DNA from: Gemmatimonadota bacterium
GTDB taxonomy: Bacteria > Gemmatimonadota > Gemmatimonadetes > Palauibacterales > Palauibacteraceae
Length of the DNA stretch: 64,000 nt
Direction of reading: 5' to 3'
NCBI GenBank assembly: GCA_963666735.1
Contig: OY762926.1
Coordinates: 3,808,001-3,872,000, forward strand
Shown here: one piece after another, positions 43,746 through 47,192 of the stretch
Numbering within the stretch: the first letter of the stretch is position 1
Layout: each line of letters begins with the position of its first letter
The notes under the pieces: generated by a model
The model's database searches: none
What the model was told of the DNA's origin: nothing
What the model saw: the letters and a program-made list of their open reading frames with translations, nothing else
Program-made: the position numbers and the translations under genes

Positions 43746-44035
43746 TCCGGATTTCTCAGTGCGCCGTGGAAAGGCGCGCTTTCCTGGTGGGTGCGAATCC
43801 CACCCAGCATTTGTCGCTCCGGCTGGTAGCGGCCAGGGCGGTCCATGAAGGTAACGACATGGATTGAAGCACTCTGGAGAGAAGGGCCGCCATGGGCGGC
43901 TCAGCGACCATGCAGGCCGGAACGCGAGTGAACGCCGAGCAGGCCTCGAGACGGGTGTCGCGGAAGCCGACCCTCCTGAGTTAAGGGGAAGGCCGCCGGC
44001 TGGCCGGGAAGAGAGCGACGAGGGCACCGGCTGGG

Positions 44036-45256
44036 CGGGAGGACTTCCTGCTGGCGGCGTGGGGGATGGTCCGGCGCAACGGCGGAGCGGCCGGAGTGGA
44101 TGGCGAGACGGTCGCGGATGTCGAGGCGCGCGGAGTGGAGCGCTGGGTCGGGGAACTGTCGCGGGACCTGAGGGAGGGCACCTACAAGCCGAGTCCGGTG
44201 CGACGGGTGCTCATTCCGAAGAAGCAGCCGGGGAAGTTCCGTCCCCTGGGCATCCCATGCCTGCGGGACCGGGTTGCGCAGACGTCGGCGATGCTGGTGC
44301 TGATGCCGATCTTCGAGGCGGACCTGGAGCCGGAGCAGTACGGATACCGGCCGGGACGAAGCGCCAAGGACGCGGTCAGGCGGATCCACCGCCTGCTGCA
44401 CACGGGCCGCAACGAAGTGGTCGATGCGGACCTCTCGAACTACTTCGGCGAGATACCGCACGCCGAGTTGATGAAGAGCATCGCGCGGCGCGTGAGCGAC
44501 GGACGGATGCTCGGACTCGTCAAGGCGTGGCTGGAGATGCCGGTGGTCGAGGAGGACGGGAAGGGCGGCACACGCCGCACGAACCGGGCGCGGAAGGAAC
44601 GAAAGGGGACGCCGCAAGGCGCTCCGATCTCGCCGCTGTTGAGCAACATCTACATGCGGCGGTTCATCCTTGGCTGGAAGGCGCTGGGCCATGCCCGGCG
44701 CTTCGGTGCGGAGATCGTGAACTACGCGGACGACTTCTGTGTGCTCGGAAAGGCACCGGCGGCGGAGATGCTGGCGGCGGTCAACCGGCTCATGGAACGA
44801 CTGAAGCTGCCGGTCAACGCACGGAAGACCCGATGCCTCCGATGCCCCGAGGAGCCGATCGAGTTCCTTGGATACCGCATCGGCTGGAACTATCGCCCGA
44901 CGGACGGAAGCCGGTACATCGGCACTCGGCCAAGCAAGGCGAGCGTTCAGAGCATCTGCCGCGGGATCAGCGAGCAAACGGGCCGGCGCTTCGCGGGCCG
45001 GTCCGCCGAGGAGGTCGTGGAGCGCCTCAACCGGATGATGTCCGGCTGGGCAAACTACTTCACCCTCGGGCAGGTCGGCGTGGCCTACAAGGCCGTGGAC
45101 CGGCACGCGACCCGGAGGCTGCGACAGTGGTTCGGGCGGAAGCACAAGGTGCGGTCGGGAAGATACGTGCGCTTCTCCGACGAACGGCTGTGGCACCGCT
45201 ACGGCCTGACACGCCTCGAGCCGACGACCGGAGACCTTCCGTGGGCGAAGGCATGA
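44036..45256 (+). pseudogene. ltrA: Group II intron reverse transcriptase/maturase, N-terminally truncated
   Basis: 'GAAGVDG', 'RPLGIP...DR', 'GTPQGAPISPLLSNIY', 'YADD', 'FLGY', X domain 'GWANYF'; no HNH; begins mid-RT0 ('REDFLLAAW') with an in-frame TAA at 43982. Confidence 0.85.
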
Positions 45257-45266
45257 TCCCGGCTGA

Positions 45267-45299
45267 GAGCCGGATGCGGGAAATCCGCACGTCCGGTTC
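45267..45299 (+). ncRNA. Group II intron catalytic domain V
   Basis: GAGCCGGATGCGGGAAATCCGCACGTCCGGTTC with AGC triad, GAAA loop and AC bulge. Confidence 0.92.
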
Positions 45300-45491
45300 G
45301 ACGAGCAGGGGAGTGGAAACGGACCTACGGGAGCCGGACTGAGCACCGGAGCGAAAGCGACGGACAACGCACCGGACCCTACGGGCACCGCGCCACCCCC
45401 TGACTCTACCAGGATGAAGTAGGCACCGGCCTCCAGTAGTCGCTAAATTGTTCTTGCCCAAGAACATGACGGCTACACAAAAGGAGGACCG

Positions 45492-46862
45492 GTGCCGACA
45501 CAGCGTAAGCCCATCTCGTTCGCCTTTCAAGGCTGTCGGGGCCGCAAGGTCACGGCCGCATTCAACGGCGGCGCGATCACCTCCCACGCCGGGGCGCTGC
45601 TGCTCAGGGAGAGCGGGCGGGCGATCGGCCTGTTCGACCGCGTCGCCGCCTGCTTCACCGACCACCGCGATCCGCGGCTCACGGAGCACTCCGTCTCCAC
45701 GCTGGTGGCCCAACGCATCGTGTCCCTCGCCCTCGGCTACGAGGATCTGAACGACCACGACCAGTTGCGACACGATCCCGTGCCGGGCCTTCTCGGCGAC
45801 AAGACCGGGGCCACCCGGAAGGACTGCGCCGCCCTGGTCGGCAAGAGCACGCTCAACCGGCTCGAACACGCGCCCCGAGGTGGAGAGCCGGGCCGGTACC
45901 ACAGGATCAGCCACGACCCGCGGGCGATGCAGGCCCTCCTCACCGAGTTGTTCATCGAGTCACGGACCGGCCCGCCCCCCGCACGCCTGGTCCTCGACAT
46001 CGACTGCACCGACGACGAGACGCACGGAAGGCAACAGGGCCGCTTCTTCCACGGCTACTACGGCCACTACTGCTTCCCGCCGCTGTACGTCTTCTGCGGA
46101 CACCACCCGCTCGCCGCCGTCCTCCGGCCCGGCAACACCGATCCGGCCCGCGGCACCGTCGAGGAACTCGACCGCATCGTCACCCAACTCAGAGACCGCT
46201 GGCCCAACGTCGAACTGCTCATCCGGGCCGACTCCGCATACGCCCGCGAGGAGATCATGGCCTTCTGCGAGGCGCGGAACATCCACTACGTCCTCGGCCT
46301 CGCCAGGAACGACCGCCTCGCCGGAAGGGTCGGCCCCGAACTCCTCGCCGCCAAAGTCGAGTCCGAGGGCCGCCGCCCGGTGCGCTTCTACTCCGAGTTC
46401 GCACACGCCACCCGAACCAGCTGGTCGCGCCGCCGCCGCGTCGTCGCCAAGTGCGAGCACATCCCCGGAGAGTCCAACCCCCGCTTCGTCGTCACCTCGC
46501 TCCCGGATACGATCGCTCCCCGGACCGTCTACGAGCGCATCTACCGCCCCGGGGGCAACGCCGAGAACGCCATCAAGGAGCAGCAGCTCGACCTGTTCGC
46601 CGGGCGCACCTCCGCCACCCCCATCGCCGCCAACCAGCTCAGGCTCCTCTTCTCGGCCCTCGCCTCGGTCCCCATGATCCGCCTCCGAGCCGCCCTCGCA
46701 CACACGCGCCTCGCTCGAGCCACCGCCCACTCCCTGCGACTGAAGCTCCTCAGGATCGGAGCCCGCGTCTCCGTCTCCATGCGACGCATCGCCGTCGCCA
46801 TGGACGCCCACCACCCCTTCACCGCCGAGTTCGCCCGCGTCCACGCCAGCTTCCCCACGTAG
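45492..46862 (+). CDS. IS1380-family DDE transposase
   Basis: 'FNGGAITSHAG', 'GYEDLNDHDQLRHDP', 'KSTLNRLE', 'FFHGYY', 'RADS', 'ENAIKEQQLDLF'. Confidence 0.92.
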   Translation: MPTQRKPISFAFQGCRGRKVTAAFNGGAITSHAGALLLRESGRAIGLFDRVAACFTDHRDPRLTEHSVSTLVAQRIVSLALGYEDLNDHDQLRHDPVPGLLGDKTGATRKDCAALVGKSTLNRLEHAPRGGEPGRYHRISHDPRAMQALLTELFIESRTGPPPARLVLDIDCTDDETHGRQQGRFFHGYYGHYCFPPLYVFCGHHPLAAVLRPGNTDPARGTVEELDRIVTQLRDRWPNVELLIRADSAYAREEIMAFCEARNIHYVLGLARNDRLAGRVGPELLAAKVESEGRRPVRFYSEFAHATRTSWSRRRRVVAKCEHIPGESNPRFVVTSLPDTIAPRTVYERIYRPGGNAENAIKEQQLDLFAGRTSATPIAANQLRLLFSALASVPMIRLRAALAHTRLARATAHSLRLKLLRIGARVSVSMRRIAVAMDAHHPFTAEFARVHASFPT

Positions 46863-47192
46863 CGCCCGCTGCGGCACGCAACTCCGCCCCAGAGCCCGCA
46901 CAGCCGCCCCCGGCCCGGGCACCGGTGTCTCCAGGCACCGAGCATCCGACTCCGGATCACTCCTCACCGGCCCGAAACAGCTCCCTCCGACGCTCTCGGA
47001 ACTATCCTCGAACCCCAAATGGAGACATTACCCGGCCAACCATGGACGAACGGGCTTCCGCCGTTCACTTCCGGGGGGCGTGTGAGAAATCCGGGCTAGA
47101 CGGGGAACAGTCCACTGGGGCCGAACGTGCCGTAGATGCATGAGGGTCGAACAGGACGAGGGGCCATCAGCTGGCTCGGGGCGGAATCCCCG

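Follow-up and report, generated by a model that had tools for sequence, protein, structure and literature searches.

The closest described counterpart of the arrangement reported here is RmInt2 of Sinorhizobium meliloti GR4, a group II intron shown to retrohome into both repeats of the insertion sequence ISRm17 (PMC4615759). The arguments that each IS copy supplies two sites and that the lagging strand favours such homing have already been made for RmInt2 (PMC4615759, PMC5894124, bioRxiv 10.1101/2020.10.16.342287). RmInt2 was reported from one strain and belongs to ORF class D, whose IEPs carry the C-terminal motif LX3AX3PXLF[V/A]HW (PMC4615759). Introns of group IIC that insert at terminators or attC sites likewise find safe sites in a non-coding motif that recurs, but they lack EBS2 and read DNA hairpins (PMC4424553). 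For an intron of ORF class F, EBS2 was dispensable for splicing in vitro and a role in homing was suggested (PMC3753933).

A group II intron inside an IS1380 element has been catalogued before, namely Rh.js.I1 (g1) on pRHL2 of Rhodococcus jostii; unlike the intron described below, its exons are not inverted-repeat sequence and it appears to interrupt the transposase frame. The locus column in Table S2 of PMC3552965 contains no IS1380-end site, and the accessible parts of PMC4424553, PMC7306698 and PMC12584367 contain no IS-end targeting. Titles and abstract openings of the literature on group II introns and IS1380, a search in which subscription papers mostly lay outside scope, held nothing on IS1380 ends.

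Here we describe such a site in 64,000 nucleotides of a Gemmatimonadota genome (assembly GCA_963666735.1, contig OY762926.1, positions 3,808,001 to 3,872,000), hereafter the window. Several sequencing runs containing the stretch are labelled sponge metagenome.

An IS1380 left end split by a group II intron

Read along the forward strand, the locus begins with CTAA (43742-43745), a left target-site tetramer of the YTAR type, and continues with TCCGGATTTCTCA (43746-43758), which is the outer 13 bp of the IS1380 left inverted repeat and at the same time the 5' exon of the intron. The intron itself, GTGCG...CTCTAC, occupies 43759-45409 (+), after which the body of IS1380 (45410-47095, +), present as a single copy in this genome, opens with CAGGATG.... 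At the right side, positions 47081-47099 read TGTGAGAAATCCGGG and then CTAG; the right inverted repeat, CCCGGATTTCTCACA (47081-47095, -), is an empty homing site. The left end of IS1380 (43746-47095) is split by the intron, and once the intron is removed the two terminal repeats agree at 14 of 15 bases. The initial annotation, which had recognised this arrangement, counted 12 of 14 repeat bases outside the intron; because the IS starts at 43746, the count becomes 13. That first base is T in the window and C in relatives.

The flanking tetramers, CTAA on the left and CTAG (47096-47099, +) on the right, do not form the matching target-site duplication of an IS1380 element, and they are also unequal in two intron-free copies from other genomes (L047 and L057). 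An IS21-family istA gene (42851-43744, +; NF033546, E 2e-84) is cut off by IS1380; its 3' part was not found beyond the right side of the IS, and four related istA copies read on unlike the window's right flank. The unequal tetramers, together with the lack of an istA continuation on the right, suggest that sequence was later deleted or recombined. The occupied left end at one further locus (L032) also lies in or beside an IS21 istA; the two istA genes are different (69% alike, in opposite orientation). Further along the window, positions 47193-50151 (-) encode a protein of 586 aa that matches DUF2326 and, weakly, ABC-3C CTD10, with an unannotated 325-aa ORF upstream, and are possibly an ABC three-component defence locus, while 50222-51673 (+) is a frameshifted transposase-like region with no Pfam match.

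The IS1380 transposase (45492-46862, +; 456 aa) retains its DDE residues and matches NF033539 (353 bits, cut-off 180) and PF13701. It departs from 11 relatives in columns 116, 196 and 354, all three nearly invariant; the last is the arginine of the motif Y-x2-R-x3-E; this conserved arginine, in a motif that we presume to be functionally important, is lost.

Identity and decay of the intron

The intron has the boundaries of a group II intron (5' GUGYG, 3' AY), and full-length relatives share the same ends. Rfam models place D1D4-4 at 43785-43927 (79.8 bits) and domain V at 45265-45344 (RF00029, 40.8 bits, cut-off 40); domain V, with an AGC triad, and a long domain VI ending in CTCTAC together fill 45265-45409 (+). 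The RT/maturase (44066-45256, +) contains YADD and matches TIGR04416 (322.8 bits, cut-off 300), and retains 396 of 446 aa, its N-terminus being lost. Its only Pfam matches are RVT_1 and GIIM, that is, RT-X without a D/En endonuclease domain, a feature of class F.

With an RT-X-only protein of 446 aa, YADD, a length of about 1990 nt and a long domain VI, introns of this type resemble ORF class F (g2-g4; Toro and Martinez-Abarca 2013, PMC3552965), to which the window copy is closest. The IEP is 47-49% identical to two g3 references, Ni.ha.I1 being the nearest, versus 30-34% to g1 (34% for Rh.js.I1), g2 and class D, in a comparison that contained no g4 reference. A quick tree with class F references had long reference branches and lacked references from g4, class C and class E. 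Class D was considered and rejected: the motif LX3AX3PXLF[V/A]HW is absent, the IEP ends in ...GLTRLEPTTGDLPWAKA, and identity to RmInt2 is 30%.

At 1651 nt the window intron is shorter than its full-length relatives of 1987 nt (G017, L032:3293-5279) and 1986 nt (G026), and alignment with both places the junction of a 337-nt deletion at 44033-44034, after intron base 275. Mapped onto what we take to be standard group II anatomy, the deletion would have removed the remainder of DI, then DII and DIII, the beginning of DIV and roughly 40 codons at the head of the ORF. The window intron is thus short of the complete six-domain ribozyme that its full-length relatives possess; given the extent of this loss, splicing is very unlikely and the copy is very probably dead. 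Contigs assembled from runs of three studies (X1, X3 and X5, of which X1 may be the source sample) span the deletion junction, so it is not an assembly slip. No joint that skips the intron occurred among the listed contig joints, a set that covers contigs and cannot demonstrate absence. An RNA run (X18) contained 7% of the words, in pieces that differ from the window, and single-sequence folding of the 5' region of the full-length intron carried no information (z 0.04). No copy of the intron was found in another IS end of this genome, where the lone relative is a partial intron at a different target (C1:1082097-1083666). Both partners have decayed in the window, and the unit is a relic.

Empty ends and recurrence of the junction

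The initial annotation had predicted the rejoined left end from the window, and an intron-free left end of another form would have told against it. IS copies were sought in 101 genomes by inner IS sequence only, so the outer 13-mer was not forced upon the result. All 15 intron-free left ends fetched, from seven related genomes, start with CCCGGATTTCTCA and match the reconstruction. The next two bases are CA in 11, AA in three and GA in one; two of these ends (L047 and L048) read on as CAGGATGAAGTAG, the same as the window. Within the genus, 12 of 36 genomes gave exact matches to the tetramer plus repeat, whereas a control gave none. One genome (G017) holds an occupied and an empty IS copy that are 98.6% alike.

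The repeated junctions that the initial annotation had proposed to seek by tabulating flanks did appear. The junction pattern is present at 78 loci of the genome collection, in 46 genomes (record sets counted by accession prefix) and eight phyla (as phylum labels), and at 40 metagenome loci; as the scan pattern selected for the junction, these 118 loci give breadth and not frequency. All of them read on into intron-like 5' sequence, many only briefly. The five bases upstream, which the pattern left free, were YTAR+C at 98 loci, one mismatch from it at 17 and otherwise at three, which argues that the recurrence is not chance. With the window included, domain V was in reach at 27 of 119 loci: eight at right ends, three at left ends, three in MITEs and 13 unclassified. 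Both ends and MITEs are used. Where both ends of the element were seen, the flanking tetramers match in eight of 11.

The proposal that the intron lineage uses IS1380 ends, with two sites in each, holds for part of that lineage: among 58 intron 5' ends chosen by homology within this taxonomic class, only six occupy an IS1380-end site, and sequence comparison supports a sub-lineage that targets IS1380 ends, at both ends, by EBS1 pairing. The records with the closest introns are from Gemmatimonadota.

IS1380-derived MITEs of ~60-250 bp are abundant, with 65 and 115 repeat matches in two genomes (G411 and G412), and those used as intron sites are at L120, L144 and L156. At another locus (L033:5561-5620, G026) an intron stands behind the IS1380 outer repeat, and its 3' flank, judged by eye, seems to retain no more of the transposase than a short piece of its start.

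Pairing between the intron and the IS end

The 5' exon divides into IBS1 (-1 to -7), a 2-nt linker and IBS2 (-10 to -14). EBS1, of which the initial annotation had named UGAG (43977-43980) as a candidate, extends over 43977-43983 (+; loop UGAGUUA) and makes five of seven pairs with TTTCTCA; the EBS1 of the G017 intron, UGAGAA, pairs at 6/6. Of 126 intron starts that offered sufficient sequence, the EBS1 stem was present in 82 distinct ones, and dropping two tandem cases, one intron without a readable EBS2 and duplicates left 72 for covariation, 34 at IS1380 and 38 at other targets. Across the 72, EBS1 pairing averaged 5.15 of 6 positions versus 3.01 after shuffling, and none of 5000 shuffles, which ignore relatedness, was as high; the 38 introns at other targets gave 5.09 versus 2.53, with shuffles of the same kind. 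EBS1 thus covaries with its target.

For EBS2, six registers were tried in the loop that follows CUCGAAA. With the first base at -10, pairing was 3.31 of 5 versus 2.38 shuffled (0 of 3000 shuffles as high, again ignoring relatedness); registers -9 and -11 showed a weak excess (7 and 1 of 3000 shuffles), and -7, -8 and -12 gave no signal in the 72 introns. Among the 38 introns at other targets, register -10 alone stood out. In the window this identifies EBS2 as CGGGU (43952-43956, +), which faces exon -10 to -14 (ATCCG) with four Watson-Crick pairs and one G-T and so extends to -14, where the IS target tetramer ends. At IS1380 sites the fifth base of EBS2 and base -14 were C/G in 15 introns, U/G in 10, U/A in eight and C/A in one (n=34). 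The window intron thus has the EBS-IBS pairing of a group II intron, and EBS1 and EBS2 covary with linear sequence, unlike the hairpin recognition of group IIC. The EBS2 candidate put forward earlier, CCGGA (43917-43921, +), was discarded, being part of a GGCC-GNAA stem-loop present irrespective of target; it was picked in 15 of 38 introns at other targets and six of 34 at IS1380, by a pattern that mis-picked some rows.

A G at 43988 (+), its position presumably as in IIB anatomy, is the probable EBS3 and would pair with C+1 (45410). Of the 39 introns with a known end, 27 have C as the first base of the 3' exon, nine T, two A and one G.

Sister introns at other targets

In a quick tree of 55 proteins, the 19 from IS1380 ends were scattered, requiring eight changes, at least six of them forced by starred branches, against a shuffled mean of 16 under biased sampling. 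Close sister introns lie mostly at targets other than IS1380. The commonest is ~23 nt after the dispersed motif GCAGATCGTGCAGTCC. In one genome a tyrosine-recombinase gene (PF00589; L286, G000:C1:203406-204722) is flanked by two such motifs in facing orientation, and a similar gene is preceded by one (L289, C1:147295); there are about ten further sites, with sister-intron loci at L001, L035, L037, L076, L081, L084 and L100. A small recombinase element, through its ends or its relics, may thus be what these sister introns target.

Others sit at intergenic TGTAAA...TTACA-like palindromes, with EBS1 altered to match (L067, L068, L069, L072, L073, L074, L096 and L039). Further recurring targets are CTAGAACC(T/C)ATCTCA (L010 and L043, in the latter as one arm of a short palindrome), AAAGTAGAAATGTC (L090-L092), and GCCCACGC..GTTGAA hairpins (L083, L086-L088); we take the CTAGAACC(T/C)ATCTCA and AAAGTAGAAATGTC targets to resemble IS ends. 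A Pfam search of 96 frames flanking 27 selected loci found no common transposase neighbour of the sister targets.

One intron is a mosaic (L066:2541-4528 and L082:2480-4534, G187) whose 5' 300 nt are of the IS1380-targeting type. At L066 this part is 99% like the G017 intron, while the ORF and 3' end are 98-99% like a neighbour 10 kb away that has another target, which points to module exchange, or else to recombination or misassembly.

Discussion

With a probability of roughly 0.88, we favour a history in which an endonuclease-less class-F group II intron retrohomed by EBS pairing into the end of a pre-existing IS1380, and both later decayed. The intron RNA would read the IS end as a homing site, EBS1 pairing with -1 to -7, EBS2 with -10 to -14 and EBS3 with +1, and would land after base 13 of the repeat, so that each IS1380 copy and each derived MITE could offer two non-coding sites in opposite orientations. 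By analogy with RmInt2, insertion may proceed by reverse splicing into DNA followed by priming at the replication fork, with a benefit from the lagging strand. Decay of intron and IS1380 in the window would have followed homing. The five of seven EBS1 pairs in the window count against this model. Independent homing is supported by a genome (G410) in which one intron, 100% identical over 1978 nt, occupies opposite ends of two IS copies that are 97.3% alike, the right end in one and the left in the other; such an arrangement needs separate homing events.

The initial annotation had allowed that the IS might carry the intron as cargo or that the intron might disarm it. If the end stays usable after insertion just inside the conserved 13-bp core, IS and intron could transpose as a unit. 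The entire 13-mer does remain outside the intron, and at two loci (L117 and L146) the two repeats agree over those 13 bp only; moreover, corresponding ends of two IS copies ~11 kb apart in one genome (G408) hold one and the same ORF-less intron (99.4% alike over 2504 nt), and each copy has CTAG on both sides. Homing can explain this pair too, however, because another IS1380 in that genome (L212) harbours this ORF-less intron as well, and CTAG, as the consensus target, carries little information. The window unit is single-copy in its genome, none of the other genomes among the 101 searched has a match that runs through the window's deletion, and neither that search nor the G408 copies yielded a dead intron-IS unit present at more than one site. 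Divergence from G017 is unequal (91-94% identity for the intron, 97% for the IS), and the window's nearest intron relative (G013) lies at the end opposite a window-like left end. Co-transposition as a cargo partnership is on this evidence less likely than not. A broader scheme, in which a multi-phylum class-F clade is specialised on the ends of mobile elements (IS1380 repeats, the inverted ends of a small tyrosine-recombinase element, and others), lands one base inside the 13-bp core so that the end stays usable, travels as cargo of IS1380 and MITEs, and switches targets by exchanging a domain I EBS1/EBS2 module, is a speculation that we hold slightly less probable still. Tandem and nested introns in another genome (G409) were rejected as a test of co-transposition, the same nested intron standing at sites with different 3' exons; it is 3.9 kb long, with a second RT inside the first, and occupies several such sites (L285, L163 and L188).

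Disarming would mean that the insertion cuts sub-terminal signals and the promoter off from the outer repeat, that the IS can no longer move and that both partners then decay; this seems to us somewhat less than an even prospect. The window IS occurs once in its genome, its transposase is damaged and its first base altered; of the two G017 copies, the occupied one breaks off after 744 nt while the empty one is complete; and a review states that introns with IS targets limit their spread (PMC5894124). The order of events is unreadable, however; the occupied copies at L149, L151, L154 and L158 have transposase matches of full length and tetramers that agree, and empty copies decay as well (one, L047, has a split transposase match). 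A chance ectopic insertion or an assembly chimera, to which the imperfect EBS1 pairing and unmatched tetramers of the window might point, is refuted to the point of extreme improbability by recurrence of the junction: the same position is in use at 118 other loci. Against a chimera there are also contigs from runs of the three studies across the 5' junction (X3), the deletion and 3' junction (X1, X3 and X5) and the right end (X3 and X5).

Homing into IS1380 ends, the reading we prefer, has the logic of RmInt2. Both introns are endonuclease-less and use both terminal IS repeats, in both the linker is two bases long (-8, -9) and EBS2 covers five, at about -10 to -14, and the RmInt2 target likewise has a CTAG tetramer at its outer edge. 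The IS between two RmInt2-type introns on pRmeGR4d, which we take as ISRm17, encodes an ISNCY transposase (NF033593) and is not IS1380. The strategy is already published for RmInt2 and ISRm17; new here are the intron class, F and not D, and the IS family, IS1380 and not ISNCY, and the IS1380-end type, unlike RmInt2, spans eight phyla and uses MITEs too. The RmInt2 precedent for two sites per IS, the decay of both elements and the sisters' other targets were absent from the initial annotation.

As a relic, the window's own copy adds little by itself. With its relatives, an observation from one strain becomes a widespread strategy, in a different intron class and a different IS family with similar target geometry. 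These introns also provide natural EBS1/EBS2 variants of the poorly studied class F. Because EBS2 is dispensable for splicing of a class F intron in vitro, we only infer its part in homing, but its covariation with the target fits the role suggested in PMC3753933 and points to EBS2 acting in homing despite that dispensability.
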